Virus record (IMG/VR): IMGVR_UViG_2563366959_000014
Strand: one strand, 5' to 3'
DNA: 14,999 bases
From: a virus
Lineage: Duplodnaviria; Heunggongvirae; Uroviricota; Caudoviricetes
The position numbers were made by a program, and so were the translations under genes. Below are positions 1 through 14,999 of the stretch, one piece after another. Every line of letters starts with the position of its first letter. Position 1 is the first letter of the stretch. The notes beneath the pieces were generated by a model. That model ran no database searches and was not told the origin of the DNA. It saw only the letters and a program-made list of their open reading frames with translations.

Positions 1-165
1 ATGGCAAAGCCGATCATCACGCTCAATGGCCTAAAAATCGTCATTATGTTGGGAATGCTGGTCATTATTCTCTGCGGTATCCGTTTTGCCGCCGAGATCA
101 TCGTGCCGTTTATTCTCGCATTATTTATTGCTGTTATATATAACTTATTTCACTTAACGCATTGA
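1..165 (+). pseudogene. tqsA: 5' fragment of an AI-2E family membrane transporter (TqsA-like); after codon 46 the frame runs into unrelated AT-rich sequence and stops at codon 55
   Basis: Translation [45 protein letters not shown] matches my recollection of the E. coli TqsA/YdgG N-terminus; the following IYNLFHLTH* does not. The ORF is far too short for a transporter. Identity is recalled, not searched. Confidence 0.45.
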
Positions 166-251
166 TTTAATTAAATAATTTACACCACAAAAAGTGCCAA
201 AAATCGCAAAATGACTACACCAGTGACTACACCGTTCGGTGCACTGTATGA

Positions 252-277
252 AACAACGTGGAACAAATAGACACAAG
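252..277 (+). promoter_or_regulatory. Copy A of a composite direct-repeat site (AACAACGTGGAACAA then ACACAAG)
   Basis: Exact 13-mer AACAACGTGGAAC at 252-264, also present at 7749-7761 (+) and 13702-13714 (-); flanking bases also similar. Confidence 0.4.
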
Positions 278-596
278 AAATATAAAGGCGGGTCATCTTT
301 CCAGGGGGAAGCGCACCAATTCATGAGGGGCGTTAATGTCGATATGGGGATCCCCACCTACCGGAATTTTTGCCAGGTTAAATGTTAATCAGGCTGGTGG
401 GCTTTACATACCCTTGATCACGGTAATGATGATTCAGGTGCGTACCTTTTCCCCAGTGGGGTAAAAGCTCCAACCGTAACGATGTTCGTTGTGGTTGCCT
501 TGATGGTCTGCGTGGTCATTATGACCATTCAGAATTTGAAGGGTGATGTTTCCGATCTCCTCAAATTGAGGTTGCCGGAAATATCAACGGGTTAGG

Positions 597-620
597 CCAG
601 AGTGCAAATTTGCACTCTGG
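597..620. repeat. 24-bp perfect palindrome CCAGAGTGCAAATTTGCACTCTGG
   Basis: Read directly; the reverse complement is identical. No flanking T-run on either strand, so not a classical terminator. Confidence 0.6.
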
Positions 621-642
621 AACAATTCCAACCAGTAATCAG

Positions 643-670
643 CGCAATTTTGCGCTTTGCTTTAAGTTCA
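643..670. repeat. 28-bp direct repeat, copy 1 (CGCAATTTTGCGCTTTGCTTTAAGTTCA)
   Basis: Identical 28-mer recurs at 862-889; each copy lies 14-22 bp downstream of a perfect palindrome. Confidence 0.6.
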
Positions 671-678
671 GCGAGTAA

Positions 679-702
679 CCGAAGGCGGAATTCCGCCCTC
701 GG
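679..702. repeat. GC-rich near-palindrome CCGAAGGCGGAATTCCGCCCTCGG (perfect core GGCGGAATTCCGCC)
   Basis: Read directly; 14-bp perfect palindromic core at 684-697, extended arms with one mismatch. Confidence 0.5.
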
Positions 703-828
703 TACTCACATATGAGAAACGATATTTCTTCCACCGATACCCTTTATTTGGGTATCGCGAGTAAGCCCCAAAATCTGGGTGTTACTCTTACTACCCAAAC
801 TACGGGTATTTTCCGTAATTTCATGGTC

Positions 829-848
829 GAGTTGCAGATCTGCAACTC
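829..848. repeat. 20-bp perfect palindrome GAGTTGCAGATCTGCAACTC
   Basis: Read directly; the reverse complement is identical. Confidence 0.6.
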
Positions 849-861
849 ACCCACCAGCCAA

Positions 862-889
862 CGCAATTTTGCGCTTTGCTTTAAGTTCA
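862..889. repeat. 28-bp direct repeat, copy 2
   Basis: Exact match to 643-670; ends 6 bp before the stop of the 93-aa minus-strand gene. Confidence 0.6.
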
Positions 890-894
890 ACCAG

Positions 895-1176
895 TTACCG
901 CCGTAACCGCTCCGGCTTCTTCCAGTGGTACGTAATTTTTGCTTTTTCCCTGTACGTCTGCACGCGGCGACGGTAGGCCAGCATTTCAAGAACGCGGATC
1001 CGTATGTTGCGCATATCCACATCATTAAGCTGGATACCATCACGGCGCATCACCTCAGCAACAACACGCGCATAATTTTCGGCGGTCACGCTGTCCGGCT
1101 GCGTGGCCTGTTCGTCATGCTGCTGGCTGATTCCAGAGACGCGGCGGATTAATCGCAGTATTTCGGCTTCTGTCAT
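895..1176 (-). CDS. Hypothetical protein (93 aa), last gene of the packaging operon
   Basis: ATG at 1176 with GAGGT Shine-Dalgarno, about 14 bp after the TerL stop, same strand. No family recognised. Confidence 0.5.
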   Translation of the reverse strand: MTEAEILRLIRRVSGISQQHDEQATQPDSVTAENYARVVAEVMRRDGIQLNDVDMRNIRIRVLEMLAYRRRVQTYREKAKITYHWKKPERLRR

Positions 1177-1189
1177 GCTGCTGACCTCA

Positions 1190-2851
1190 TTACACCCCGC
1201 TAAATTCTTCCAGTTTCTGGCGGTGGCTGTCGCTTATATCAAAAGCAAAATCCTCATGCTCTGCCTGGAATGTACCAAACGCCATCAGCGCCGCTACGCT
1301 CGGGTCTATCTTGTTCGGTGATTTTTTCTTGTTCGGCTTGATATTGGCGTTCGCGTCACTCTGCATCACGACGTTACTCATCGACCAGGACAACACCGGA
1401 TCGCCACGATGCACAATCACCCTGCGGTTAACAAAAACTTCGAACGATTTCGCCGCCGGACTGAATCTGAGGTAGGTTTGCGGGAACGGCTCCACCTCAA
1501 AACCAGCCCCCTGTAATTGCGTTCTCAGGTGCGTGGCGTTCCACGTATCAAAGCCCACCAGCCTGATATTAAATTTCTCCGCATCCTGCATGATGTCATC
1601 TCTGATCCGGTCGTAATCAATGCAGTCACCTGGCGTTGTGCGTATCCAGCCCGCTTTAGCCCACTGGCGATAGACAGCGCGGTTTTTATTGGCGGGGTTC
1701 TGTAGCTGGAACTCCGGCAGATAATGACGGGAAATCAGCATAATGGTTTTACCAACCGGAAAGGCATAGCACACGCTGGAAATATCGCTGGTTGATGATA
1801 AGTCCAGCCCCGCGTAACACTCCTGCCCGTGTAAATCTTCCTCCGTGAACGTTCCGGCACACTCAGCCCATGCGCCGTAACCCATCCACGGGGTAGCCCC
1901 CTGGCACCAGATATTAAATCGCTTTGTCATCATCTCCACCCATTGCGACGGAATACCCCGCGCTTTCTGGATGGTTGAGGCCAGTTTTTCACGATCCACG
2001 GAAACATCGATGTTAGGGTTAGCCTTTATCCACATCGCCGGATCATCAACCTCGTTTTCGTCGTCCAGCTCGTAAATCAGCACAAAAATTGAATCGTTGA
2101 CCTCTTCGCCGTCCAGGATCTGGCAGCAATAATCATAGTGCTGTTTACAGGCTGAAACGACGTTACTGCCCGATGTGGTAATGGCAAATAACAGCCCTTC
2201 GGGACGTGCGCCCATCCCCAGCTCAAGCGCGGAATAAACGCCGTTATCGGGGTGTAGGTGGTATTCGTCCACGATGGAAAGGCTTGGGTTTGTGCCCTCG
2301 ATGGTTGCCGCTTTTGCTGCCAGCGGCTTTAACAGGCTGTTGCTTTTCGGGTGCATCACCTTGTGGGCCTGAATATTCACCCGCCTGCGTAACGGTCGGG
2401 ATAAAAGGCACATCTGACGCGCATCATCAAAAACGATCCGCGCCTGGTCACGGCTCACCGCTGCGGTGTAGATATCCTGCTGCCCGTTCTCCATAATCAG
2501 AAACCAGTTAGCCAGAATCGCGGCGGTCGTGGATTTCGCATTTTTGCGCGGCACTTCGATAAAGGCGCTCGTGTATTTGCGCCGTCCGGTGGCCTTAACC
2601 TTAAAGCCGAGGATGCACGCAAAGGCGAACTGCTGCCACGGCTCCAGCTCAATGGGTCTGCCACGCATCGGCCCTTTTACGTGCGGGCACACCCTGGAAA
2701 AGGCAATAAACCGCTCCACGACCTCACGATCGAACGTATAAAGGGGGTTTTTAAGGTCAGAAAAGTACCGTTTAACGGCCTGTTTCAGCCGTTTACAGGC
2801 CGGAATTTTGCCCGTTTTTACGTCTTCTGCGTACTTATTCCAGGCGGTCAA
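1190..2851 (-). CDS. Terminase large subunit (TerL)
   Basis: 553 aa with N-terminal ATPase region and C-terminal nuclease-like region typical of HK97-type large terminases. Starts with TTG (AGAGGA Shine-Dalgarno upstream), overlapping the TerS 3' end by 17 nt. Confidence 0.9.
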   Translation of the reverse strand: MTAWNKYAEDVKTGKIPACKRLKQAVKRYFSDLKNPLYTFDREVVERFIAFSRVCPHVKGPMRGRPIELEPWQQFAFACILGFKVKATGRRKYTSAFIEVPRKNAKSTTAAILANWFLIMENGQQDIYTAAVSRDQARIVFDDARQMCLLSRPLRRRVNIQAHKVMHPKSNSLLKPLAAKAATIEGTNPSLSIVDEYHLHPDNGVYSALELGMGARPEGLLFAITTSGSNVVSACKQHYDYCCQILDGEEVNDSIFVLIYELDDENEVDDPAMWIKANPNIDVSVDREKLASTIQKARGIPSQWVEMMTKRFNIWCQGATPWMGYGAWAECAGTFTEEDLHGQECYAGLDLSSTSDISSVCYAFPVGKTIMLISRHYLPEFQLQNPANKNRAVYRQWAKAGWIRTTPGDCIDYDRIRDDIMQDAEKFNIRLVGFDTWNATHLRTQLQGAGFEVEPFPQTYLRFSPAAKSFEVFVNRRVIVHRGDPVLSWSMSNVVMQSDANANIKPNKKKSPNKIDPSVAALMAFGTFQAEHEDFAFDISDSHRQKLEEFSGV

Positions 2852-3191
2852 GCTCGTCCTCTTCTTCTGTTTCCGGTGGATTTTTACGGCGGCTTATCGG
2901 GTCAAAACCGAGCAAAGAGGCCATTTTTATCATCACTCTTTCCGCGTCGGATTTCGCGCTTAATGCGGGGTTTCTGCTCTCGCCGCCCTGACTGTTAACA
3001 ATGCTGAACCCGCGCGCCGCAAGGTCTGCGACGGCTTTCCGGTATATTGAGTAATTGACGCAATACAGTTCCAGATTACTCCAGTCGGCAGGGGTCAGGT
3101 CTCCCCGTTCCGCAAGCTGCCGCGATTTTTCCCGCCACTGCTTCACGGCGATATCATCCAGGTAGGCGGGGGCTTTCGGTGGTCTTGCCAT
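2835..3191 (-). CDS. Terminase small subunit, P27-family-like (TerS)
   Basis: 118 aa; sequence pattern (PKAPAYLD...LTPADWSNLELYCVNYSIY...ESRNPAL) fits P27-family small terminases; directly upstream of TerL. Confidence 0.85.
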   Translation of the reverse strand: MARPPKAPAYLDDIAVKQWREKSRQLAERGDLTPADWSNLELYCVNYSIYRKAVADLAARGFSIVNSQGGESRNPALSAKSDAERVMIKMASLLGFDPISRRKNPPETEEEDELDRLE

Positions 3192-3240
3192 GCTTATTTT
3201 TTCGCCAGATTATTTTTCAAAAAATTACCGTGCATAAAAA

Positions 3241-3310
3241 TTTGGGGAGGCGGTCGGTTCTGGGCGGGGTCGGGTTCGTCCTGAAAACTCCCCCCACCCC
3301 GTCCGGCTGC
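3241..3310. other. Candidate cos / packaging-recognition region (G-rich block followed by C-rich block)
   Basis: GGGGAGGCGGTCGGTTCTGGGCGGGGTCGGG followed by CCCCCCACCCCGTCCGG, embedded in an AT-rich gap between HNH and TerS, where HNH-dependent cos phages place cos. Positional inference only. Confidence 0.3.
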
Positions 3311-3314
3311 CTCA

Positions 3315-3488
3315 TCAGCGATTGCGGAAACATTCCATAACCTCGCGGTCACGGTCGTTTAATCGCGTCGCTGTGATGCGTTCTGCGCGTCCTGATGCTT
3401 TATCTTTATGCCCTGTTTCCTGTGCCTTCCATGCGTCACGCTGCCTTATAAGTCCACGGATAAGGCGGTTTTGTTCCCGCTCATTCAT
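3315..3488 (-). CDS. Small charged hypothetical protein (57 aa)
   Basis: ATG at 3488 overlaps the HNH stop (3481-3483) in the arrangement ATGAATGA, suggesting translational coupling. No family recognised; could be spurious. Confidence 0.35.
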   Translation of the reverse strand: MNEREQNRLIRGLIRQRDAWKAQETGHKDKASGRAERITATRLNDRDREVMECFRNR

Positions 3489-3921
3489 CAGCGCCATACA
3501 TCCAGTTATTGCGGTTAGCGCCCCGTTCTTCCTCCTCACGGAATCCACCCGCAGCACGCTTGTTTTTTGTGGACGGATCAAGCCATTTCGTTTTCTGGTT
3601 ATGACACGCCTGGCACAATGGCTGATGATTCCACTCAGGCCAGAAGAGAACATCATTACCGCCATCGATTGGGATAATGTGATCCACCACCACGGCGGGC
3701 GTGTATATTCCTTTTTCCAGGCAATGCGCACATAACGGGTTTTTACTCAGATACATGGCGCGGTATTTCTCCCACTGCCTCGTATACCCTCGCTCCCTGC
3801 TGCTGCCTCTCCGGCTGTCCTGCTGCTGGCGTGCGCTGCGTCTGTGCTCCTCACACTTGCCGGACTTCACGCGCCTGTTGCAGCCTGGTTCTGTACATCG
3901 TCTTAATGGTTGCCACGGCAT
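3481..3921 (-). CDS. HNH endonuclease (terminase-associated)
   Basis: 146 aa with cysteine-rich N-terminus and the motif VDHIIPI...N.QPLCQACHNQKT; sits next to TerS/TerL as in cos-packaging HK97-like systems. Confidence 0.9.
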   Translation of the reverse strand: MPWQPLRRCTEPGCNRRVKSGKCEEHRRSARQQQDSRRGSSRERGYTRQWEKYRAMYLSKNPLCAHCLEKGIYTPAVVVDHIIPIDGGNDVLFWPEWNHQPLCQACHNQKTKWLDPSTKNKRAAGGFREEEERGANRNNWMYGADE

Positions 3922-4217
3922 CAGTACACCCCCACATCACGGTAAGCCGTCCAGAGTGCGCCAATCGTCATGGGTACGTGTGTTTTTGCGTTATCCGCGA
4001 CAATCTGGCGATTCTCATACAGGTGAGCGATAAACATCATGCAGCCAATCTTTATGGCTGGCGTGAACTCCAGCCCGTCATCAAAGCGCCTGCCTATGTG
4101 TATCTGGCACGCCTCAAGCGATGCGGCAATGTATCCGCTGATTAACTGGTCTTCCTCGTCGCCATCGATGCGGCAATGGAGTTTCACTTCTTCCAGGGTG
4201 ATAAGTTCTTCTGTCAT
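3921..4217 (-). CDS. gp6-like head-tail connector protein
   Basis: 98 aa; N-terminus LITLEEVKLHCRIDGDEEDQLISGYIAAS matches the gp6-like connector pattern. Start and stop overlap neighbouring genes. Confidence 0.8.
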   Translation of the reverse strand: MTEELITLEEVKLHCRIDGDEEDQLISGYIAASLEACQIHIGRRFDDGLEFTPAIKIGCMMFIAHLYENRQIVADNAKTHVPMTIGALWTAYRDVGVY

Positions 4218-4552
4218 TTTTCCGCGCCCTCACGACAAAGAATTTCAAGGCGTGTCCTGGCGGCATCCGGCAGCGGCTGCCCGATGATATTCAGTACACG
4301 CCCCGCCAGCGGCCCCGTATTGACCTTTATCCGGCTGGTGGCGTTGATGTCCTTCCGGTACCGTATCCAGATCCTTACGGTACCAATCGCCAGCTCTGCA
4401 CCCGATGAAATGGCCTCCTTGCTGCTGACCATGTTCACGCTTGCCCAGAGTGTGTGACCGTCCTCCCACGTTTCGAGTATTTCTCCCGTCATGGCTCTGG
4501 TCTGTTTCAGGGTCTGAATCGTTACCCTGTCACGCAGTCGCCCTATGTTCAT
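4214..4552 (-). CDS. Head closure / head-tail adaptor protein
   Basis: Begins MNIGRLRDRVTIQ, with the IRYR and NIIG motifs typical of head-tail joining proteins; ATG at 4552 overlaps the portal stop (ATGA). An alternative start at 4594 is possible. Confidence 0.8.
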   Translation of the reverse strand: MNIGRLRDRVTIQTLKQTRAMTGEILETWEDGHTLWASVNMVSSKEAISSGAELAIGTVRIWIRYRKDINATSRIKVNTGPLAGRVLNIIGQPLPDAARTRLEILCREGAEK

Positions 4553-5760
4553 TCCGGTTTTTCTCCCTCGCTGATTTTTACTTCCTGTTTCCATGCCTGG
4601 CTGAACTCATCACCACCATCACGCGGAGACAACCCTTCTCGTTCGCGGGCTTCGTTCGGGCACATAACACCGGATTTGATGCCTCGCTCATAGGTGGCAA
4701 AGCGTTCGCCAGGTGTGGCCCGTAACAGGTCCGCGCTGTCAAACTCCACCTGATACCGGATACCAGGTACAGGCGAGACCACCAGCAAAGCGTTTTTTAT
4801 CTGCTGCTCAAAGTTCGCCAGCCACGGGCGCATCGTCATGGTGAGAAATGCGCGGCTTGCCTCGCTGAAATTGCTGTAGGTGCTGTTGCTGTATTCCTGC
4901 AGAAAAATCGGCGAGACGTTGAACATTCGGGCGATGTCTTCAATGGTGAAGCGACGGGAGGCCAGCCATTCGGCGTCCTGGTTACTCATGCCCAGCTGCT
5001 GGTAACTCATGCCCCCTTCAAGGATGGGCGTTTTTCCGGCGTTTTTGGCCCCTTTATAGCGTTCCAGTGCGGCTAATGCCTGTTTGCCTTTCACGCCGTC
5101 CAGCCATTCGCCTGACGTGATAACCCCTGCCGCCATCATGCCATCACGCATCACGCTCGCGCCGTGGCGTTGTTGGGCCAGCCCAAGCCCCAGCGATTCG
5201 CGGCAGATGGTTACGGGTGAGCGCCCCATAAAGCCGTCATCCGTGGAGTAACGAAGGTGAAGTACTTCCCACGGTAAATAGTTGCGGGTGTTTCCGGTGT
5301 AGGCGTCAGTGATGCAATAGCGCCAGTTGTGTTCTCCTGTCTGCTCCACGTTCACCGACTGCGGCGGGTAAGGATGTAAAGCCGCCGGAAAACCATCACG
5401 CCCCCACTGAATCACCGCGTAAGCATTACCGTTTAACAGGCAGTGGCGGATCATCATTCGCTTAAACTGGTAGGGAGTCTGCCACGCGTTCGGGCGCTCG
5501 TTGAGGATGTGATCGACCGGATGAGAATCAAGCCACTCGCGGGCCTCCTTCCCCTTCTCATTGCGTACCAGGTACAGGTAACACGGCATAGTAGCCACCG
5601 CCTCAGAGATGACCGTGACGGCGTTCATGACGGCGGGCAGTGATTCCGCTGTCCCCGATGATACATACTCACCCGCCCCCGTGTTTAATGTACCAGCCAG
5701 CGCCATAAATTCATCAAGCGTCATGCTGCGCTGCTCTTTTTTTCTTCTGAAAGGCCACAT
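4549..5760 (-). CDS. Portal protein, HK97 family
   Basis: 403 aa, portal-like sequence features; ATG at 5760 one nt after the protease stop, GGGGGTG Shine-Dalgarno. Confidence 0.9.
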   Translation of the reverse strand: MWPFRRKKEQRSMTLDEFMALAGTLNTGAGEYVSSGTAESLPAVMNAVTVISEAVATMPCYLYLVRNEKGKEAREWLDSHPVDHILNERPNAWQTPYQFKRMMIRHCLLNGNAYAVIQWGRDGFPAALHPYPPQSVNVEQTGEHNWRYCITDAYTGNTRNYLPWEVLHLRYSTDDGFMGRSPVTICRESLGLGLAQQRHGASVMRDGMMAAGVITSGEWLDGVKGKQALAALERYKGAKNAGKTPILEGGMSYQQLGMSNQDAEWLASRRFTIEDIARMFNVSPIFLQEYSNSTYSNFSEASRAFLTMTMRPWLANFEQQIKNALLVVSPVPGIRYQVEFDSADLLRATPGERFATYERGIKSGVMCPNEAREREGLSPRDGGDEFSQAWKQEVKISEGEKPE

Positions 5761-5761
5761 A

Positions 5762-6319
5762 TCACACCCCCGCTAAATCCACCCACCAGCGGCGATTATC
5801 CGCACGCGGCATTTTTTCGGGGTGCTGCTCATACAGGGAACGGCGGACCAGCTCCACACCGGAATCGGGGTAAGCCGGTACGGATGTGACGGTAATTTCG
5901 TACAGTTCCGCAACCAGCACGGTGCGCACGCATGGATCTGTTGTGGTATCCCATACATCCTTACGGGAACGAAAGCCAAAGCTCATGCCGGATATATCAC
6001 CACGCTTAACCAGTTCGATAACGTCCCGCCCTGTACTGGTATCCGGTGGCGTCAGTTCAAAGCGTAACCCTGTGTCGTCCTCTTCCAGTTTCAGCGAGCC
6101 GGAACGGGTGCGCCCCAGTAACATGCTGTGGTCATGCTCATACAGGCCGCGAACGTCATTACCCGCCGCAAGCCACTCAGTAAACGCCCCCCGCTGAAAT
6201 TTTTCGTAAAACTCACCCCATAGCAGATCAGAAAGGTTATTCCAGCGAACAACGTAACCCGTCAGCGTGTTGCTGGCGCTGGTGGTGATTTCCGATGACC
6301 GGATTTCCATACTCTTCAT
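5762..6319 (-). CDS. Prohead maturation protease, HK97 family
   Basis: Sequence pattern (GYVVRWNNLSD...ISGMSFGF...EITVTSVPAYPDSG) fits HK97-type prohead proteases. Start chosen at the internal ATG at 6319 (MKSMEIR); the longer ORF to 6433 would overlap the capsid gene. Confidence 0.85.
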   Translation of the reverse strand: MKSMEIRSSEITTSASNTLTGYVVRWNNLSDLLWGEFYEKFQRGAFTEWLAAGNDVRGLYEHDHSMLLGRTRSGSLKLEEDDTGLRFELTPPDTSTGRDVIELVKRGDISGMSFGFRSRKDVWDTTTDPCVRTVLVAELYEITVTSVPAYPDSGVELVRRSLYEQHPEKMPRADNRRWWVDLAGV

Positions 6320-7532: not shown

Positions 7533-7540
7533 AAAAAAAA

Positions 7541-7773: not shown

Positions 7774-7790
7774 ATAATTTACAAAAAATT

Positions 7791-7814: not shown

Positions 7815-7824
7815 GTATGGGTGC

Positions 7825-8049: not shown

Positions 8050-8144
8050 TGTTTTTTCCTCTGTTGTGTCTGTTTGTTTCAGATAGTAACTATGCCGGAC
8101 CGTGACGAAAAGCCGGTAATGCGCCATACCGTTTCAACTGGCGC

Positions 8145-8168
8145 AAAAAAAGCCGGATTTCTCCGGCT
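8145..8168 (-). terminator. Rho-independent terminator (minus strand), near-duplicate of 7791-7814
   Basis: AGCCGGA / TCCGGCT stem with a T-run on the minus strand; 6 nt after the PerC-like stop. Confidence 0.7.
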
Positions 8169-8174
8169 GTGTGA

Positions 8175-8447
8175 TTAGCTGTCCTGGTAATTGCGCCATA
8201 TTTCATCACCAGCACCATCTATACCCATTTCGGCATAAGTGCGATTGACTGCCTTTCTCAGGTCTCCGAAATTATCAGGCGGCTCCGGTGGCCTCTGTGC
8301 CTTCCTGGAACATTCCAGCCGTCGCATCGTGATGTGATGCCGTTCCTTGTCTGTCTCCACCAGCATCATGACTTCACCCCATCGCGCCGCCGCCCTCCGG
8401 TAAAATCCTTTCGCTTCGAGTTCTTCCGCTATGCGGTCATGTACCAT
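8175..8447 (-). CDS. PerC-family small transcriptional regulator (90 aa)
   Basis: N-terminus MVHDRIAEELEAKGFYRRAAARWGEVM matches the conserved AE.LE..G.YRRA..RW signature of PerC/Pch proteins as I recall it. ATG at 8447 with GAGGGGGTGA Shine-Dalgarno just after the SSB stop. Confidence 0.6.
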   Translation of the reverse strand: MVHDRIAEELEAKGFYRRAAARWGEVMMLVETDKERHHITMRRLECSRKAQRPPEPPDNFGDLRKAVNRTYAEMGIDGAGDEIWRNYQDS

Positions 8448-8457: not shown

Positions 8458-8868
8458 TCAGAACGGAATATCATCACCGTAAGGGTCATCGCCTCCCGCT
8501 GGTGGCTGATTACCCTGTGTGCCTGTGGTTTTGCGTCTGCTGCCGCCTGGTCGCACCGTTTTCGCACTGATTACGCTGTCGGCAATGACCTGATAACCCT
8601 GACGCGTCTCCCCGTTCTGTCCGGTCCACTGGCTTACCTGCATCGTGCCGGATACGCTGATTACGTTGCCTTTCTCATGTCCTGCCAGTTGGTCGGCCTG
8701 TTTGCCAAATGCCAGGACCGACAGCCATAACGTAGCCTGCCCGTCCTGCGCCTGACTGCATGGCAACGATACCGCCATACGCGCCAGCGTCATCGGTGTG
8801 CCCTTGCTGGTCTGTTTTACCTGCGGGTCGTCCACCAGCCGCCCGTAAGCTGCAATTTGTGCTGTCAT
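8458..8868 (-). CDS. ssb: Single-stranded DNA-binding protein (SSB)
   Basis: OB-fold-like N-terminal region, a Gly/Gln/Pro-rich linker, and the canonical acidic C-terminal tip ending DDIPF. Confidence 0.85.
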   Translation of the reverse strand: MTAQIAAYGRLVDDPQVKQTSKGTPMTLARMAVSLPCSQAQDGQATLWLSVLAFGKQADQLAGHEKGNVISVSGTMQVSQWTGQNGETRQGYQVIADSVISAKTVRPGGSRRKTTGTQGNQPPAGGDDPYGDDIPF

Positions 8869-9466: not shown

Positions 9467-9700
9467 AACCCTTCACCTGTTCACCTTTTGATATTTTATC
9501 TTTTAATTCATAATGTTAAGGGGTGAACAGTTTCACAAAAACTATTCACCAACTGTTCACCACTGTTCACCCTTGAAGCTCAATAAACAATCAAAAAGGT
9601 GAACAGTGAATAGTTTGGTGAACAGTTCATAAATAACTGTTCACCCTATAATATACTGATATAAAAGATATTTATGACAGGGTGAACAGTGGTGAACAGT
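9467..9700. repeat. Replication origin: about ten GGTGAACAG / CTGTTCACC iterons in both orientations within an AT-rich segment
   Basis: Iteron copies at 9478-9485, 9522-9530, 9543-9550, 9553-9561, 9563-9571, 9598-9606, 9617-9625, 9638-9646, 9681-9689 and 9691-9699; the segment lies directly 3' of the primase gene. Confidence 0.75.
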
Positions 9701-9712: not shown

Positions 9713-11530
9713 TTAATTTTTGCTATCGTCATTAGTGACCGATACACATGACGGCATCCAGTCTTCTGATTCCTCCGTCAGTGTCACGTTTGAACGCAAA
9801 CCGTGCTTCGTTTTCCGTTTCATATACTCCCTGCCATATTCCGCCATTGCCCCCGGCATATCTTTACCGAAGCGCGTCAGTGTTACAGGTTTACCAAACC
9901 CATGTGCCTTCATATAAGCCAGATAGGCATGATAGAGATACCTGCGCGGGCTGAATGGCACAATTTCAGCATTACCCACTAACAGGCCATCACACATTAC
10001 CGACGCCATGAGATAGCCGCAGAAGTCCACCAGCGAATCACCTTCACGCTTTATCGCGAGTGCTTCTTCTGATTTCTGCTGCTCATATAAAAGGCGTCTG
10101 GCTTCGTCCTGGTCAGCAAACCGTGTAAGCAGATGACGAATCACTACCGCCAGCTCACCTTCTATTTTTTCCGCCAGCATTGAATCGCGTTCGTTCTCCG
10201 GTACAACTTCCGAAAAATTGAATATCACCCGACGGCGCGAGATCCCCCCGCTGCGGTCACTGAATGACATGGCGTTATTGTTAACCGCCAGCACTACTGC
10301 CGGAATACGCGTTGAGTAGGGGGCTTTGTGTTTCGGGTCAATTGCCACCTTGTCACCGCCTGTAATGGCCTTAATTCCTGCCCCATCACCAGCGTAGCGG
10401 GTCATATCCGGCATGATAATCAGCGAAAAGCCAACCACTAACGCGCGTTCCCTTGCATCTTCCAGCGCCTTCATGCTTGCCGATACTGTGTTGGCCTTAC
10501 CCGCCAGCATGGTGCAAATCTCCGCCATCACGCTTTTACCACTTCCCCCTGGACCTGTTACCTCAATGAATAACTGCCAGTCGTACCGGTTCGCCAGCAC
10601 CATGAATAATGCAGCCAGTACGCGATCCGCCTTGCGGTCATTCTCAGCCACCGAACGGCGTAACCACTTCCAGAAATTCGGCGCATGTGTTGCCAGCGTT
10701 TCTCCCTCTGCTGGTGGGCTGAAAGGTAATTCACTGGCAATTAACAACCAGTCGTTTTTGTTATGCTCCCGAAAATCGCCTGTCCGGGTATCAAAAACAC
10801 CGTTACTGAATCCAATCAGGTTACGGGCTGTATTCCCCATTACAGGCAAACTTAACTTCATGGTATCGACCGCCGATTTAATGGCGTTCTGCGAATAGCT
10901 GATCTCCGCATCAATGAAAATCTGTGCCATAGCTCGCTGTAATTCTTTATCCTGTACTGGCTCCCATACAACGCCGTTGTAATAGTGAACAGTGTCAGAG
11001 TCAGCATGAATCGCCAGTTCACCGCCATAATGTGCCAGGAGAACTTCGCCGCGTTGACTTGCTCCCATCTGGTTAAGCGCCAGTGATGAAGCGTTATCGT
11101 CTTTTACCCGCTCTTTTTTCTTTACAGGCAGTTCAACTACCTTTTTCTTTTCCGCCTGCTCTGCCCGTTCACGTTCCAGATATTCGCGCCAGTTCTCCCG
11201 TTTCTGGCTGTGCATTCCTTCAGGGTAATAATCAGCATCCCTGACACCTGCCGCTGCCAGTTTCTGCCCGATGGTATTAACAAGCCCCGGACGCAATAAC
11301 CCCGCCTGGTAGAGACGCACGCGATAGCGTCCGTCCGGTACGATTTGCAGGTTGTCCAGTTCGGCAAGTTGTTGCTCTCCAAGCCAGACAGGAGGCACGC
11401 TGTCGCCAGCCAGTCGCCCGTCCTGTTCCTGCCACTGCTTCGCATGTGCCCACGCATCACTACCCGCAAAAATGATGACTTCCGTCATTTTGTCACGTGG
11501 CTGGTGTTTTAAATTTGGCGCTTTTTTCAT
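9713..11530 (-). CDS. Replication primase/NTPase, P4-alpha C-terminal-domain family
   Basis: 605 aa from the ATG at 11530 (MKKAPNL), which overlaps the upstream stop (ATGA) and follows a GGAGAG Shine-Dalgarno. Walker A motif GPGGSGKS and a Walker B-like hydrophobic stretch; followed by the iteron origin. Confidence 0.85.
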   Translation of the reverse strand: MKKAPNLKHQPRDKMTEVIIFAGSDAWAHAKQWQEQDGRLAGDSVPPVWLGEQQLAELDNLQIVPDGRYRVRLYQAGLLRPGLVNTIGQKLAAAGVRDADYYPEGMHSQKRENWREYLERERAEQAEKKKVVELPVKKKERVKDDNASSLALNQMGASQRGEVLLAHYGGELAIHADSDTVHYYNGVVWEPVQDKELQRAMAQIFIDAEISYSQNAIKSAVDTMKLSLPVMGNTARNLIGFSNGVFDTRTGDFREHNKNDWLLIASELPFSPPAEGETLATHAPNFWKWLRRSVAENDRKADRVLAALFMVLANRYDWQLFIEVTGPGGSGKSVMAEICTMLAGKANTVSASMKALEDARERALVVGFSLIIMPDMTRYAGDGAGIKAITGGDKVAIDPKHKAPYSTRIPAVVLAVNNNAMSFSDRSGGISRRRVIFNFSEVVPENERDSMLAEKIEGELAVVIRHLLTRFADQDEARRLLYEQQKSEEALAIKREGDSLVDFCGYLMASVMCDGLLVGNAEIVPFSPRRYLYHAYLAYMKAHGFGKPVTLTRFGKDMPGAMAEYGREYMKRKTKHGLRSNVTLTEESEDWMPSCVSVTNDDSKN

Positions 11531-11826
11531 TTCTGCTCTCTCCACGCGGCAATCATGTTTTTTAGTTCCTGTAGTTTTTTATCAACATCCATACATGACA
11601 CATGGTTATTTCTGGAAAGCGGGATTTCCCGCCTGAATCTGCTAATAAAGATCTCCACGTTCAGCGAACTAAGAAATGAATAGCCATCACGGATAAAATA
11701 CACTCGGTCAAACATCAGTTCTTTTACCGTTACTCTGTTACCGTTCTTATCCAGATAAATAGCGCCGGGGATAATTTGGGGGTGTGCATAACCGCTGGCA
11801 GTCAAGCCAGATAAATATGTTCTCAT
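11527..11826 (-). CDS. Hypothetical protein (99 aa), AT-rich
   Basis: ATG at 11826 with GGGGA Shine-Dalgarno; stop overlaps the primase start. No family recognised. Confidence 0.55.
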   Translation of the reverse strand: MRTYLSGLTASGYAHPQIIPGAIYLDKNGNRVTVKELMFDRVYFIRDGYSFLSSLNVEIFISRFRREIPLSRNNHVSCMDVDKKLQELKNMIAAWREQK

Positions 11827-11832
11827 GATTAT

Positions 11833-12153
11833 TTATCCCCGATTTAAATCAGTATTCGCTTTCTTTATAGCATTTAATGCATCTTTGGCATTTTCAATGG
11901 TGCACCGTAACGAAATATCAAACTGTCCAAGCATTGCCAGTAACAAACCGATATTACCCATATCAATGCGCATGGCCTTTTCGTCATATTCCTTATTTTC
12001 TGACGCATACCACATCAGGCTACCAATTGACGAAACAGCCATTGATATATTGTCAGTAGCCCCATCCGCAGCGGAATAAACCTTTTTAGCAATATCATGC
12101 TCACAGTTAAAATGCGGATTAATCAGGTACTGGTAATTGGTCATGTCAGTCAT
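11833..12153 (-). CDS. Hypothetical protein (106 aa), AT-rich
   Basis: ATG at 12153 (alternative at 12144), overlapping the 3' end of the upstream small gene. No family recognised. Confidence 0.55.
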   Translation of the reverse strand: MTDMTNYQYLINPHFNCEHDIAKKVYSAADGATDNISMAVSSIGSLMWYASENKEYDEKAMRIDMGNIGLLLAMLGQFDISLRCTIENAKDALNAIKKANTDLNRG

Positions 12154-12349
12154 GGCACACCCCCTGACGAATACGGGCGGCGAATACCATCACGCAGCCA
12201 GCCGGGGATTGCTGGCGTGCTTCCTGTTCGCTGCTGGCCTCAATGGTAATCACGCGCGGTTGTGCCGTGCTCAGGGCGATAAAACGCCAGATGTATTTAT
12301 TCAGGTTGTGCGAGTCCCGCCCTTGCGGGTGTGTGGTATGATTTCTCAT
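12146..12349 (-). CDS. Hypothetical protein (67 aa), first gene of the minus-strand replication operon
   Basis: ATG at 12349 with GAGGT Shine-Dalgarno at 4-nt spacing; this is the C-terminal 67 codons of a longer spurious ORF. Weak support. Confidence 0.4.
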   Translation of the reverse strand: MRNHTTHPQGRDSHNLNKYIWRFIALSTAQPRVITIEASSEQEARQQSPAGCVMVFAARIRQGVCHD

Positions 12350-12445: not shown

Positions 12446-12499
12446 GGTGTTGAACACCAATTTAAACCCAGGTGTTAAACACGTCAAGTGTTGAACACT
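12446..12499. promoter_or_regulatory. Three palindromic operators (GTGTT-N-AACAC) in a divergent promoter region
   Basis: GGTGTTGAACACC at 12446-12458, GGTGTTAAACACG at 12471-12483, AGTGTTGAACACT at 12487-12499. The third overlaps a plus-strand -35-like TTGAAC (12491-12496), with a 17-bp spacer to a -10-like CATACT (12514-12519). Confidence 0.6.
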
Positions 12500-12548
12500 T
12501 ATTTTTTTTCCTGCATACTGCATTTGTTTTTTATGAGGGGTACACCAC

Positions 12549-12728
12549 ATGGCGACAAAAGCAGTAAACGCAAAATCACAAACCGTTGCGGCAAGGGTTC
12601 CGCATGAAGTTATGAACAATGTTGAGGCGGTAAAAATGCCTGGCGAAAGTACGGGGCAATTTGTTACTGCAGCATTAAAACGAGAAGTTGAATATCGCCA
12701 GCGGCGCAAGGCCAAAGAACCAGAGTAA
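12549..12728 (+). CDS. Ribbon-helix-helix (Arc/CopG-like) DNA-binding protein, 59 aa
   Basis: Not in the supplied ORF track (under 60 aa). ATG at 12549 with GAGGGG Shine-Dalgarno. TVAARVP (beta strand), HEVMNNVEAV (helix), GESTGQ (turn), FVTAALKREV (helix) fits the RHH pattern. Divergent from the replication operon. Confidence 0.55.
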   Translation: MATKAVNAKSQTVAARVPHEVMNNVEAVKMPGESTGQFVTAALKREVEYRQRRKAKEPE

Positions 12729-12785
12729 TCACCATCAGCGCCGTGGTGTAAGGTATTACGGCGCATTGCTATGCAGGACAACACA

Positions 12786-12959
12786 ATGACCGATAAAGAA
12801 TTGACCAAAACATTATCACCGGCACGGAAAAGACGGCGCAGAAAGATAGAGCATGAATCAGAAAGATTCGCGCCATGTGCTTTTGCCCTTGAGCAATTCC
12901 TTAAAGAGTACAGGGAAAAGCGCTCATTGCAGGTATGGCAACGAACTGAACCAGACTGA
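12786..12959 (+). CDS. Small basic hypothetical protein (57 aa)
   Basis: ATG at 12786 with AGGA upstream (alternative start at 12771); contains an RKRRRRK basic tract; followed by a terminator. Confidence 0.4.
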   Translation: MTDKELTKTLSPARKRRRRKIEHESERFAPCAFALEQFLKEYREKRSLQVWQRTEPD

Positions 12960-13054
12960 TAGCATTGCCCACCAGCCTGATAGCGACTATCATTGCCGTT
13001 CTTATGTTTGGGATCACACACACAAACGGCGCAGCGGGTTATCTGTTCAGAAAG

Positions 13055-13082
13055 GCGGCTCCATTTCGGGGCCGCTTTTTTT
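13055..13082 (+). terminator. Rho-independent terminator (plus strand)
   Basis: GCGGC / GCCGC stem followed by seven T, about 95 nt after the stop of the second plus-strand small gene. Confidence 0.6.
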
Positions 13083-13228
13083 ATGTCTGAAAAACCCCAA
13101 TTTTGTTGTTTTTCAGTTTCACCAGGGCGAACGAATCCCCGCCCACGTTCGGGCGCATATTCAATCTTCATGGTTATAGCTCTGTGTTCAGATGATTGAT
13201 GTGTGGCGGCTGCGTGCCGCCAGCGTGA

Positions 13229-13417
13229 TTAATGAACTGCCTTGCAGCTATCCTTCCAGGCCAGAACCTCGGATAAAGACCAGCCAACGGAACGACCGCC
13301 AAGTTTACGACGTGATGGGAATTGTCCGGCCTTTTCCATGCGGTAGCGACACGTACGGCTAAGGCCGGTTAGTTTTTCGCATTCTTTTTCACGTATAAAC
13401 CGATCAGTGCTTAACAC
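13229..13417 (-). CDS. alpA: AlpA-family regulator / excisionase-like HTH protein
   Basis: 62 aa; KLTGLSRTCRYRMEKAGQFPSRRKLGGRSVGWSLSEVLAWK fits the AlpA/Vis winged-helix pattern. GTG start at 13417 with AGGGGG Shine-Dalgarno at 5-nt spacing; lies downstream of the integrase. Confidence 0.8.
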   Translation of the reverse strand: MLSTDRFIREKECEKLTGLSRTCRYRMEKAGQFPSRRKLGGRSVGWSLSEVLAWKDSCKAVH

Positions 13418-13568
13418 TATTGCCCCCTTTCGTTTCTTAAAGAGTCATCAGGTGTCTTATTGTGTCGTATTGTTCCCGCTAGAGTGATGAATGGCAAATG
13501 TTGGTGGCGGATGGTTTACAGAAAGAGGAATAATCAGGATAAAATCATTTAAATTCATGTTAATACAA

Positions 13569-13599
13569 AGGCATAAAATCTCGTTTTATGCCTTTTTTC
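13569..13599. terminator. Hairpin with flanking A/T runs, likely terminator for the integrase transcript
   Basis: AGGCATAAAA / TTTTATGCCT stem with a 5-nt loop; TTTTTT follows on the plus strand and a U-rich stretch follows on the minus strand. Confidence 0.45.
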
Positions 13600-13689
13600 T
13601 CACGCTTTAAAGCGTGATTCGCTAATGTATAAAAAACCAGTAATATAATAAAAATCAGCGACTTATAAATCTGTATGCTTTTTCGCCTC

Positions 13690-13740
13690 TTGTTCGTGAT
13701 TGTTCCACGTTGTTGCACATTGTTTCACGTTGTATCTGTT
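13690..13740 (-). promoter_or_regulatory. Copy C of the composite site, embedded in five tandem 10-bp repeats (TGTTnCACnT)
   Basis: Consecutive decamers TGTTCGTGAT, TGTTCCACGT, TGTTGCACAT, TGTTTCACGT, TGTATCTGTT; reverse complement contains the exact AACAACGTGGAAC. Lies between the integrase stop and alpA. Confidence 0.45.
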
Positions 13741-13781
13741 CGCATATCCAGTATGCGCATACTGAAAAAACCCGAAAAAAA

Positions 13782-14999
13782 TTATTTTCTTCTGGCTACG
13801 GGTAGCGTGGTTACGTTTTCATGTGCTCCCGCCAGTATCCCTAACCGCTCCGTCCACATATCCAGCGCATCACGTTTCGCATCCAGATAACGGGAATGGT
13901 TATAGACTCGTTGCATCCCTGGCATCTGATGACCTGTAAGCTGCTCCACGACGTGAGGATCCGCGCCTAAATCGTTCAGCATCGTTGTAAAGGTGCGCCG
14001 GATGTCATGCAGTGACCATTGAGGGTGTTTTAGCCTCCTGTGCGCTAATCTGCCGTACTGCGATACGCTGGCCTCCTGTTTCACTTCCCCCAGCAATAAG
14101 CCCGTGTGCCTGTTCTGCTCCACCAGCTTCATGACAAACGGCAGGATCGCTTCCGGTATGGGCCGGAATATTGCGACCTTCGTTTTGCTGTGCTCCTTCG
14201 GAACGGTCCATAGCATTTCCGTAAAATCCCACTCCCCGATCTCCGATAACCTCAGTTCTACCGTTCTGGCACCGAAGACAATCAGGAGGCGGATTAACGC
14301 GACGTAGTAAGGGGAAAATATTTTTTTATCCAGTGCCTGCAATAACTCGCCAAGTTCTTTGGTGCTTAAGACACGCTCGCTTATATCCGGTTTTTTCCCA
14401 ACGTCCGCAACGTTCAGATCGTCCAGAACGTTGCTGATTGCATAGCGCCGCCTACGGCAGAACTTAAGCGCCTGTTTGCACGCCTGTAGCACGAATCCGG
14501 CAGTAACAGGCGTTCGCTTTGCCACCTGGTCAAAACAAGCCAGCCAGTGCCGTAGCTCGCATTTATCCAGCGGCATAGCACCAATGTGCTGTATTACGTG
14601 ATTATTAAGTCGCCTTTTCAGGGCGATATAATCCACGCGGTTTTCCTTTACGTAAGACTCAAGCCAGTAGGTAAGCGCATCGCCAACCGTTACGGGCTTT
14701 AACGCTTCCTGTACGGTGTAATTCATCTCATGACGTGGATTTTTCCCCTCAGCCAGCCATGCGCGACACTGTGCGGCTTTTTCCCTGGCTGCTTTCAGGC
14801 TCAGATCAGGATAACTTCCCAGCTTAATGCGTTCGGGTCGTGTCTCCCTTCCCGTTCCGGCCCTGTATGTGAAATACCATGTCAATTTCCCTGATGTTAA
14901 ATATTTCACGCTCAGGTTTCCGCCATCACTATAAAACGTGTTTTTCTCAGCTGGCTTACCATGAAGTTTCCTTAGCAATGTATCGCTCAGTTTGTTCAT
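13782..14999 (-). CDS. int: Tyrosine integrase, P4-type
   Basis: 405 aa; N-terminal arm-binding-like region (YSDGGNLSVKY...WYFTYR) and a C-terminal catalytic region with the conserved HDIRRT and a tyrosine near the C-terminus. ATG is the last three bases of the window. Confidence 0.9.
   Translation of the reverse strand: MNKLSDTLLRKLHGKPAEKNTFYSDGGNLSVKYLTSGKLTWYFTYRAGTGRETRPERIKLGSYPDLSLKAAREKAAQCRAWLAEGKNPRHEMNYTVQEALKPVTVGDALTYWLESYVKENRVDYIALKRRLNNHVIQHIGAMPLDKCELRHWLACFDQVAKRTPVTAGFVLQACKQALKFCRRRRYAISNVLDDLNVADVGKKPDISERVLSTKELGELLQALDKKIFSPYYVALIRLLIVFGARTVELRLSEIGEWDFTEMLWTVPKEHSKTKVAIFRPIPEAILPFVMKLVEQNRHTGLLLGEVKQEASVSQYGRLAHRRLKHPQWSLHDIRRTFTTMLNDLGADPHVVEQLTGHQMPGMQRVYNHSRYLDAKRDALDMWTERLGILAGAHENVTTLPVARRK

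Follow-up and report, generated by a model that had tools for sequence, protein, structure and literature searches.

The DNA analyzed here (14,999 nucleotides, referred to as the window) covers nearly all of an island of approximately 15.06 kb in the E. coli gene tqsA, which is very probably a capsid-forming PICI (cf-PICI) of the EcCIEDL933 lineage. The island is a close mosaic relative of this characterised prototype and therefore of an already known kind; by analogy, it is viewed as a 15-kb satellite that would build its own small heads and take its tails from a helper phage. Elements of this class are described as 10-18 kb long, with a conserved gene order and without lytic genes or a tail module (10.1101/2025.02.11.637232), and the tqsA island falls within the published working definitions. 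SatelliteFinder components were matched via Pfam models. An intact minus-strand gene was found for integrase, AlpA, primase, SSB and every head and packaging component, which together cover integration, regulation, replication and the whole HK97-type head and packaging pathway (Table 1).

A first-pass annotation of the window had proposed an integrase, AlpA, a primase with an iteron origin and an SSB, all of which were found by Pfam and by counting the GGTGAACAG repeat. The HK97-like set that it listed (capsid, protease, portal, two head-completion proteins, HNH, TerS and TerL) is complete and Pfam-supported. Its claim that tail and lysis genes are absent agrees with zero matches to tail or lysis families (Pfam, PHROGs) among the small ORFs tested, which also gave zero matches to defence families (PADLOC). 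Annotated coding sequences occupy 85% of positions 138-14999 and no gap between them exceeds 757 bp, which leaves no space for tail or lysis genes inside the island. While the proposal of a satellite with its own small capsids and stolen tails is supported by the cf-PICI definitions and by the near-identity to EcCIEDL933, the suggestion that the element may be uncharacterised was overstated, as the family and a near-identical prototype are known from genetics and cryo-EM.

Table 1. Features of the tqsA island in window coordinates; percentages and fractions are protein identities to EcCIEDL933.
Feature	Position	Strand	Family or basis
tqsA 5' fragment (AI-2 exporter, host gene)	1..137	+	same as K-12 tqsA through base 137
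attL core TGCTGTTAT	129-137		within tqsA 5' fragment
GACTACACC-AGT-GACTACACC, candidate integrase arm-type site, attL arm	213..233	+	motif search
TTGTTC boxes, 10-bp phasing, attL arm	251..276	-	candidate AlpA/excisionase site
Hairpin-rich distal non-coding region	585..900		fold z-score -10
93-aa protein, last gene of the island	895..1176	-	phrog_1561
TerL	1190..2851	-	PF03354, PF20441; 98.6%
TerS, P27 family	2835..3191	-	PF05119; 118/118 (100%)
G+C-rich spacer, HNH/orf60 to terS	3192..3314		candidate cos site
60-aa protein	3315..3497	-	phrog_3173; 93%
HNH endonuclease, packaging partner of terminase	3481..3921	-	PF01844; 88%
gp6-like head-tail adaptor	3921..4217	-	PF05135; 97/98 (99%)
Head-closure protein (head-tail connector)	4214..4552	-	PF05521; 108/112
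Portal	4549..5760	-	PF04860; 397/403 (98.5%)
Prohead serine protease, S78, HK97 type	5762..6319	-	PF04586; 97%
HK97-fold MCP with N-terminal delta domain	6375..7532	-	PF05065
Packaging-operon leader and promoter region	7533..7824	-	terminator hairpin, TTGTTC boxes, structured leader; putative function
Small accessory genes: orf74, orf42, PerC-family regulator	7825..8447	-	
PerC-family regulator, PchE homologue	8175-8447	-	PF06069; 91%
SSB	8458..8868	-	PF00436
Two small proteins, 101 aa and 81 aa	8878..9425	-	phrog_27268, phrog_1231
Putative iteron origin, ten GGTGAACAG iterons	9477..9699		directly 3' of primase stop
D5-type primase-helicase, replication initiator	9713..11530	-	D5_N/Pox_D5; PF08706, PF19263, PF03288; phrog_864
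DUF4222 protein (RgdR family)	11527-11826	-	PF13973
106-aa protein, between DUF4222 and Icd-like genes	within 11527..12349	-	
Icd-like protein	12146-12349	-	phrog_6196, 'transcriptional repressor'
Three perfect 11-bp palindromes GTGTTNAACAC	12447..12498		divergent intergenic region; overlap promoter-like site
YlcI/YnfO-family small protein	12549..12728	+	RefSeq name; phrog_949
Truncated gene downstream of alpA	12724..13171	-	N-terminal 149 aa (247 aa in EcCIEDL933)
AlpA, master activator	13229..13417	-	PF05930
Four to five TTGTTC-type boxes, 10-bp phased, int-alpA interval	13690..13735	+	candidate AlpA autoregulation site
Tyrosine integrase with arm-binding domain	13782..14999	-	PF13356, PF00589

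Boundaries of the island

A 9-bp duplicated core, TGCTGTTAT, bounds the island and splits tqsA. Comparison with the empty K-12 site places the left junction at 137/138, so that the previously proposed start at 139 is accurate to one or two bases. Positions 138-14999 comprise all but the final approximately 190 bp, which lie outside the window. In the nearest genome (NZ_CP144930.1, 10 mismatches in 14,999 bases), where RefSeq annotates the tqsA fragment as a pseudogene, the att direct repeat that was to be sought to the right of 14999 was located as a second TGCTGTTAT copy at window-equivalent positions 15187-15195; it closes the island and is followed by the remaining tqsA and then pntB. The right boundary is accordingly placed, from this genome and not from the window's own source, at a probable position about 190 bp past the window end. 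No phage genes were found flanking the island in NZ_CP144930.1. The first-pass annotation had named contiguous tail or lysis genes beyond the window as evidence against a satellite; in this genome the flanks are instead the host genes mdtJ and pntB. The motif GACTACACC-AGT-GACTACACC, a candidate for the integrase arm site, occurs at only two sites in 31 kb (expected 0), the one in the attL arm and one in the attR arm at window-equivalent 15038-15058. The ATG start of int is the final base of the window, and the RefSeq start is a GTG 12 bases further out.

Head and packaging module

EcCIEDL933 (CP-933C, O-island 51 or Sakai Sp7; E. coli O157:H7 EDL933, NZ_CP008957.1, about 1,680,100-1,695,600) was analyzed by genetics and electron microscopy, which established self-made small capsids, exclusive packaging and dependence on helper tails and alpA. 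Its gene order is that of the tqsA island. DNA identity between the two amounts to 95.6% over 887-8879 (orf93 3' end to SSB, including the whole packaging module) and 92.3% over the alpA-int end, and the packaging proteins are 88-100% identical. The MCP matches PDB 9GYI, the cryo-EM T=4 capsid of EcCIEDL933, in 381 of 385 residues and retains its STGVPAD motif, the 227-248 loop, D257, K290, D295, E319 and R345; all MCP residues functionally validated in the prototype are conserved. Among the matches listed from the phage database, the closest MCPs belong to 15-16.5 kb records (57-65% identity), further hits being a 3.8-kb fragment and a 106-kb Klebsiella phage record (64%), while the remaining full-size phages reach at most 40%. 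The RcGTA capsid is also matched (E = 4e-46). The HK97 fold, S78 protease and HNH-TerS-TerL packaging logic are common to HK97, RcGTA and the tqsA island at low sequence identity, but HK97 is a complete tailed phage and RcGTA a host-controlled gene transfer agent, whereas the island is without tail and lysis genes.

The 60-aa protein is the positional homologue of an EcCIEDL933 gene that, judging from the published gene order, would be 'hypothetical gene 1792', the loss of which severely reduces transfer (10.1101/2022.09.08.507074). By analogy to the HNH-cos-terS layout of HK97-like phages, the spacer upstream of terS is a candidate cos site. The accessory PerC-family regulator resembles PchE, whose gene sits on OI-51 (PMC3378721).

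Replication and regulatory regions

Relative to EcCIEDL933, the tqsA island has other small genes in the interval from rep to alpA. The D5-type primase-helicase stands in place of a DUF927 Rep, and the two are related only over the first 140 aa (69%). The GGTGAACAG motif has 13 matches in the whole window against 2.9 expected, a number reached by none of 200 shuffles. Its ten iterons can be grouped into two arrays of five (9477-9571 and 9598-9699), with A+T-rich stretches lying among them, and their arrangement 3' of the rep gene is the layout described for PICI origins (PMC6092414), which suggests that the array serves as the replication origin. The tqsA island further differs in an extra 101-aa ORF that lacks a homologue in EcCIEDL933, a different distal non-coding segment, its length (15.06 kb versus 15.4-15.5 kb) and its attB, which is tqsA instead of the phoQ-roxA intergenic region.

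AlpA is 98% identical to its EcCIEDL933 counterpart (61/62) and the integrase 90.6% (370/409), with 20 of the 39 differences within residues 1-74 and the changes concentrated in the arm-binding domain. In EcCIEDL933, the arm motifs and the attL-arm TTGTTC boxes lie at matching positions and the int-alpA boxes are kept. The truncated gene that follows alpA shows 95% identity over its 149 aa, and similarity stops at a recombination breakpoint near 12731; it carries a pseudogene label both in NZ_CP144930.1 and in O26:H11 str. 11368. Among the island's genes, only that of the YlcI/YnfO-family protein lies on the plus strand. The three perfect GTGTTNAACAC palindromes correspond to the operator switch of the first-pass annotation; the repeats are real, and their role as an operator set has candidate status. 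The DUF4222 protein shares only 29% identity with RgdR/ECs1581.

Relatives and distribution

At least 80% of the window was matched in 68 of 5426 complete E. coli genomes. One of them, O26:H11 str. 11368 (NC_013361.1, about 2,239,100-2,254,000), shares the tqsA attB, D5-type primase, truncated post-alpA gene and packaging module; for it and the 67 others, the alignment, joined from five pieces, spans 94% of the window at about 95.6% identity. Minor differences include a longer YlcI/YnfO ORF and the lack of orf101 in these islands. The packaging module itself is present in 538 of the 5426 genomes and at a minimum of three integration sites (tqsA, phoQ-roxA and within prophage terL genes). The cf-PICIs embedded in prophage terL, a late gene of the helper (NZ_CP091700.1, NZ_CM176575.1), have a packaging module of this type, with DNA identity of about 80%, as well as PerC and SSB, but their Int and AlpA are only 41% and 46% identical and they have BRO-N and a second HTH protein as extra regulators.

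Classical E. coli PICIs at cspD/clpS (e.g. NZ_AP027818.1, locus L006) share the primase-iteron-DUF4222-Icd module (97.7% DNA identity), the 200-bp distal block (98%), an AlpA that is 66% identical and the two-motif layout of the att arms. Portal, protease, adaptor, connector, HNH and TerL are missing from them; what they have instead is a TerS and a capsid-like gene accompanied by a decoration protein, and they therefore rely on helper capsids.

Alternative explanations

It is rather unlikely, although worth weighing, that the island is a cf-PICI by descent of which this copy is immobile, owing to the swapped replication module, the truncated post-alpA gene or the lack of a compatible helper, and which acts as a fixed island only via its PerC/PchE-like and DUF4222/RgdR-like regulators. 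The pseudogene at 12724-13171 and the replaced replication module are in line with this reading, and either change could affect induction. In addition, none of the 17 resident prophages of strain EDL933 induces EcCIEDL933, and OI-51 regulators influence LEE and motility (PMC3378721). Nevertheless, the truncated arrangement is retained in O26:H11 11368, 68 genomes match most of the window, and the post-alpA gene is known to vary among cf-PICIs. The rep-ori module has remained intact in the island and is common elsewhere, with 80% or more of it in 355 genomes; the att cores and arm motifs at both ends are likewise undamaged.

Historically, CP-933C/OI-51 was annotated as a cryptic, decayed HK97-like prophage with deleted tail and lysis modules, and its phage-like head genes, as well as the long use of the term 14.93-kb cryptic prophage for the EcCIEDL933 homologue (PMC3378721), speak for this origin. 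It is highly improbable for the tqsA island: a compact set of approximately 15 kb with precise att ends recurs at several sites in hundreds of genomes, all core genes are intact, the int-alpA-primase-iterons half is of the PICI type common to classical PICIs, the MCPs of listed full-size phages are distant save for the Klebsiella record, and the prototype is a functional satellite by experiment. A classical PICI or P4-like satellite that remodels helper capsids and makes none of its own has next to no probability. In its favour, the island has Int, AlpA, the primase (a D5-type enzyme), the iteron origin, PerC, orf93 and the distal non-coding block in common with classical PICIs, but the reading is refuted because the island also encodes an MCP, protease, portal, adaptor, connector and TerL, which SatelliteFinder treats as forbidden for PICIs and defining for cf-PICIs.

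Proposed life cycle

For a cf-PICI of the EcCIEDL933 lineage, the near-identical prototype suggests the following cycle, in which cos site, helper and AlpA targets are all inferred. Induction would start with an HK106/HK446-type helper phage switching on alpA, and AlpA would then direct Int-mediated excision and island gene expression. The D5-type primase-helicase would replicate the circle from the iteron origin, while capsid protein, portal and S78 protease would produce small T=4 heads (about 47 nm). TerS, TerL and HNH would cleave at a cos site belonging to the island and load each head with a single 15-kb genome. The adaptor and head-closure proteins would then dock a helper-made tail, and release would rely on phage lysis. 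Tail specificity is determined by adaptor and connector, and HK106-type tails are the predicted partners because both proteins are near-identical to those of EcCIEDL933.

Structured non-coding regions

Two structured non-coding regions are minor novelties, as are the boxes proposed as candidate binding sites for integrase and AlpA. The packaging leader (fold z-score -4.6; 99% conserved across three islands) contains a terminator hairpin (7814-7797) and a set of three phased TTGTTC boxes (7748-7773); immediately 5' of the MCP ATG lies the hairpin GTCCTGG...CCAGGAC followed by T8. The TTGTTC block of this leader is invariant among cf-PICIs with packaging modules that are just about 80% identical, including those embedded in terL. 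No Rfam family was found for the distal non-coding region, which holds a 53-nt repeat (629-681 and 848-900). The adjoining 93-aa protein gave no match in a Pfam search and is 89% identical to its EcCIEDL933 homologue; its gene is also the last in a classical PICI (L008) and in a PICI embedded in a prophage terminase (L009). Segment 531-890 was matched in 774 of the 5426 genomes, mostly via a 200-bp block (674-873) that is common to classical and helper-embedded PICIs at 97-99% identity, and the listed matches are nearly all unannotated.

Gene content and class of the element

Pfam models and sequence comparison were used to assign the features of the window, in which all substantial genes but one lie on the minus strand. 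According to SatelliteFinder, a cfPICI is defined by 11 core components (integrase, AlpA regulator, primase-replicase, capsid, prohead protease, portal, head-tail adaptor, head-tail connector, HNH, TerS and TerL), and tails and holins are forbidden (PMC10085698). With Pfam models above gathering cut-off standing in for the SatelliteFinder profiles, 11 of 11 core components were detected in the island. Small ORFs were tested with Pfam, PHROGs and PADLOC, and no tail, holin or lysis genes were identified in the island, in line with the exclusion rule. Annotated features cover 85% of its length, and the biggest gap spans 757 bp.

Genes and sequence elements of the island. Positions refer to the window; L001 denotes the corresponding locus of the nearest genome.
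Feature	Position	Strand	Basis or location
Start of tqsA	1-137		K-12 tqsA
GACTACACC pair	213-233		att arm
TTGTTC boxes	251-276		att arm
Densely palindromic region	585-900		distal, non-coding
53-nt repeats	629-681 and 848-900		distal region
200-bp block	674-873		distal region
TerL	1190-2851	-	Pfam, above curated cut-off
TerS, P27 family	2835-3191	-	Pfam
HNH	3481-3921	-	Pfam
gp6-like head-tail adaptor	3921-4217	-	Pfam
Head-closure protein	4214-4552	-	Pfam
Portal	4549-5760	-	Pfam
S78 prohead protease	5762-6319	-	Pfam
HK97-family capsid protein (MCP)	6375-7532	-	Pfam
Capsid-operon leader	7533-7824	-	292 nt
TTGTTC boxes, three copies	7748-7773		just upstream of capsid operon
Terminator hairpins	8168-8151 and 7814-7797	-	before packaging operon
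PerC-family regulator	8175-8447	-	Pfam
SSB	8458-8868	-	Pfam
GGTGAACAG iterons, ten copies	9477-9699		directly 3' of primase stop
D5_N/DUF5906/Pox_D5 primase-helicase	9713-11530	-	Pfam
DUF4222 protein, 99 aa	11527-11826	-	Pfam
GTGTTNAACAC palindromes, three	12447-12498		candidate operator set
AlpA	13229-13417	-	Pfam
TTGTTC boxes, run of four to five	13690-13735		between int and alpA
Tyrosine integrase with arm-binding domain	13782-14999	-	Pfam
GACTACACC pair	15038-15058, window-equivalent (L001 23038-23058)		att arm
TTGTTC boxes	L001 23086-23111		att arm

A 2025 preprint describes cf-PICIs as elements of 10-18 kb with a conserved module order and neither a lytic nor a tail module (10.1101/2025.02.11.637232). 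The island measures 15,058 bp from att core to att core, inside the range of ~10-18 kb, and its modules are arranged as integrase, regulation, replication and packaging, which is also the order in EcCIEDL933, the prototype cf-PICI of E. coli O157:H7 EDL933. It is integrated discretely at a site of its own, with the 9-bp att core TGCTGTTAT at both ends and an empty site in K-12. The definition of a classical PICI, which is without portal, adaptor/connector and terL and uses helper capsid proteins, does not apply because the island has a portal, adaptor, connector and TerL. On every criterion that can be tested in sequence, the island is a cf-PICI. The components listed in the first-pass annotation were recovered item by item, by Pfam and by the iteron count 3' of the primase, and its proposal of a tail-less, capsid-forming satellite is supported by the 11 core components, the lack of tail and lysis genes and the close match to EcCIEDL933.

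The alternative of a temperate or cryptic, decayed HK97-like prophage is very unlikely. Neither the island nor the flanks of the nearest genome contain tail, lysis or immunity modules or their remnants beside the head genes. The same compact module occurs at several sites, namely in tqsA (here and in O26:H11 11368), between phoQ and roxA (O157:H7) and in prophage terL genes, and the packaging module was detected in 538 of 5426 complete E. coli genomes. Among the matches listed, the closest capsid relatives are mostly found in satellite-sized records. Two of the four closest capsid proteins among 50,697 phage records belong to records of 15-16.5 kb (57-65% identity) and the other two to a 3.8-kb fragment and a 106-kb Klebsiella phage record (both 64%), while capsid identity is 40% or below for all other full-size phages among the matches listed. 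Two further cf-PICIs, with packaging modules ~80% identical, were located in HK97-like prophages, whose large-terminase gene they interrupt (NZ_CP091700.1 and NZ_CM176575.1); they directly adjoin complete head and tail modules and are helper-embedded satellites.

The cf-PICI family has been catalogued with 969 elements in 13% of Enterobacteriaceae genomes (PMC10085698) and has already been dissected by genetics and cryo-EM. The element is of an already known kind, or at most an unnamed mosaic allele of a defined family. As a class, cf-PICIs matter since they are abundant in Enterobacteriaceae and spread from one species to another by attaching to the tails of different phages.

Insertion into tqsA

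The window is E. coli chromosome, and its top match, NZ_CP144930.1, differs at 10 of 14,999 bases. Comparison with the uninterrupted K-12 tqsA placed the left junction at 137/138. The right end was read from NZ_CP144930.1, in which a second TGCTGTTAT lies ~190 bp past the window and is followed by the remaining tqsA and pntB; mdtJ and mdtI are found to the left of the island. Tail or lysis genes just outside the window had been named beforehand as the observation that would speak against a satellite, yet both flanks of this nearest genome consist of host genes, with no phage, tail or lysis genes on either side.

The gene tqsA, which encodes the AI-2 exporter, is interrupted after codon 45. Its 5' fragment is extended by 9 codons from the island and ends with a stop at 163-165, so that it occupies 1-165 of the window. 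On the other side of the island, a TAA located two codons ahead of the core prevents a tqsA fusion, and the host is therefore probably TqsA-deficient. Eight of the 10 differences to NZ_CP144930.1 are clustered at 151-160 and 372-383 in the attL arm, which suggests small recombination patches, and the base-level comparison shows that the window derives from a different strain. A tRNA scan of the window found no tRNA genes, and the element is thus not a tRNA-targeting island. Six cf-PICI integration sites have been published; a literature search, with published attB lists outside its scope, returned no relevant report of tqsA/ydgG as a PICI attB.

Comparison with the prototype EcCIEDL933

EcCIEDL933 was located between roxA and phoQ in the EDL933 chromosome. 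Its DNA is 95.6% identical to window 887-8879 (orf93 3' end to SSB) and 92.3% identical to 12731-15187 (the alpA-int end), whereas the region from ~9400 to 12730 is replaced. The encoded proteins are highly similar, with identities of 118/118 for TerS, 97/98 for the adaptor, 397/403 for the portal, 108/112 for head closure, 98.6% for TerL, 97% for the protease, 88% for HNH and 61/62 for AlpA. The MCP matches 381 of 385 residues of PDB 9GYI, the T=4 capsid of EcCIEDL933 at 3.24 Å according to the depositors' preprint. It retains the STGVPAD maturation motif, the 227-248 connector loop and D257, K290, D295, E319 and R345, which are all of the features validated by mutation in the cryo-EM paper. 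A TTG start at 7577 was rejected for this gene in favor of the ATG at 7532, as the resulting product matches the 385-aa chain of 9GYI. Judged by these alignments, the head module is nearly that of EcCIEDL933.

With an MCP 99% identical to 9GYI and other packaging proteins 88-100% identical, the island is predicted to build small capsids of its own and to package itself exclusively. AlpA-dependent helper induction and the need for helper tails have been shown only in EcCIEDL933. By analogy with experiments on this prototype, the island would form its own small heads, package exclusively, be induced by a helper through AlpA and take over helper tails.

The integrases of the two elements share 370 of 409 residues (90.6%; window 13782-14999 versus 530-1759 of the EcCIEDL933 locus L005), and the arm-binding domain, residues 1-74, accounts for 20 of the 39 differences. 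Their cores differ, with TGCTGTTAT in tqsA here and AAATATGTCC between phoQ and roxA for EcCIEDL933. This integrase pair is a possible handle for studying site choice of satellites.

Replication module and a candidate operator

EcCIEDL933 encodes a DUF927 protein as initiator, while a D5-type primase is found in this island. Ten copies of the iteron GGTGAACAG follow the primase gene; the whole window contains 13 matches versus 2.9 expected, and no shuffle attained 13. A typical PICI origin reportedly has iterons around an A+T-rich stretch directly 3' of the initiator gene (PMC6092414), and the same layout was observed here, with iterons flanking an A+T-rich region 3' of the primase. The block of rep, iterons, DUF4222 and Icd is 97.7% identical in a classical PICI at the cspD/clpS site (NZ_AP027818.1), and at least 80% of it was found in 355 genomes. 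This sharing fits the published free exchange of the integrase-proximal halves of PICIs and cf-PICIs (PMC10085698). The copy is another case of module shuffling, combining a prototype-like head module with a classical-PICI-type replication module, and adds little beyond it and the disruption of its host's tqsA.

The gene after alpA is cut at a recombination breakpoint near 12731, as in O26:H11 11368 and unlike in EcCIEDL933. A 341-aa ORF in the mechanical ORF list (13171-12146, minus strand) was rejected as a gene because its frame crosses the truncated post-alpA gene, the YlcI/YnfO gene in antisense and the Icd-like gene; most likely the frame arose by chance at the recombination joint and encodes no protein.

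Between the Icd-like/replication operon and the YlcI/YnfO gene, which is oriented divergently, a stretch of 52 bp contains three perfect palindromes GTGTTNAACAC (5-1-5, GTGTT(G/A)AACAC). They overlap a promoter-like site on the minus strand (TTGACG-17-TAAATT) and are a candidate operator set. The operator switch of the first-pass annotation probably corresponds to these palindromes; they were located in the sequence, and the operator role itself is kept as a candidate.

Candidate sites for integrase and AlpA

In 31 kb of sequence, where 0 occurrences are expected, the arrangement GACTACACC-AGT-GACTACACC is confined to the two att arms. Both arms of a classical PICI whose integrase is different contain an analogous pair, ATTAACTACACCATTAACTACACC, and share the two-motif layout. 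The GACTACACC pairs are candidate integrase arm-type sites.

In both arms the GACTACACC pair adjoins 10-bp phased TTGTTC boxes (core ACAACGTGRAACAA on the opposite strand), which also occur between int and alpA and ahead of the capsid operon. EcCIEDL933 carries them in the same four places, and none occur in 16 kb of flanking host DNA. The set next to the capsid operon does not vary, even among cf-PICIs with packaging modules of only ~80% identity. A plain integrase arm-site function is weakened because the box upstream of the capsid is kept in cf-PICIs with an integrase only 41% identical. AlpA is reportedly required for excision, positively autoregulatory and an activator of island genes, and for this reason the TTGTTC boxes are regarded as candidate AlpA binding sites.

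A tentative joint reading, which we consider possible but less likely than not, is that one protein, most plausibly AlpA acting as a Cox/Vis-type excisionase-activator, would bind the phased TTGTTC boxes. With boxes in both att arms and ahead of alpA as well as the capsid operon, excision, autoregulation and head-gene expression would be coupled. The two near-identical terminators and the conserved structured leader ahead of the capsid operon could allow antitermination control, and the arm-restricted GACTACACC pairs would serve as integrase arm sites. The cis-regulatory logic of the island may thus be legible from sequence and appears to be undescribed in the cf-PICI literature examined. The predicted cis-element map is the one part that is mildly new, and the candidate AlpA and Int boxes provide possible handles for work on satellite regulation.

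Capsid-operon leader and distal non-coding region

The two terminator hairpins before the packaging operon have the form AGCCGGAG-N-ATCCGGCT plus a T run. The leader is 99% conserved among three islands versus ~96% for genes, and its fold has a z-score of -4.6. At its 3' end, immediately before the MCP ATG, a 7-bp hairpin (GTCCTGG...CCAGGAC) is followed by T8, and the ribosome-binding site of the capsid gene probably lies within the 3' arm of this hairpin. This arrangement suggests that the packaging operon may be under antitermination or attenuation control.

The distal palindromic region has an RNA fold z-score of -10. Classical PICIs share its 200-bp block at 97-99% identity, as does a PICI lodged within the terminase gene of a prophage; only fragments of the block occur in EcCIEDL933. 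With segment 531-890 as query, matches were obtained in 774 of 5426 genomes, and almost all of the matches listed are unannotated. As a guess, the plus-strand terminator-like hairpins of the 53-nt repeats could shield the island from tqsA read-through. Rfam returned nothing at gathering threshold for the whole window; a permissive Rfam scan of 100-950 gave tfoR at 16.5 bits versus a cut-off of 70 (E = 0.33), which was taken as a chance match.

Host-facing cargo

PADLOC detected no known defence systems among ten accessory proteins, and the variable regions of this copy therefore hold no recognisable immune cargo. EcCIEDL933 is the element long called CP-933C, O-island 51 or Sp7, and encodes PchE and RgdR, the latter a DUF4222 protein of 99 aa with an activating effect on LEE1 and a repressing effect on motility (PMC3378721). 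These regulators of the homologous EHEC island affect type III secretion, motility and curli. The PerC-family protein of the present island is a PchE homologue, 91% identical to the protein of the EDL933 PchE locus, and its DUF4222 protein belongs to the RgdR family, with 29% identity to RgdR and without the RGD motif.
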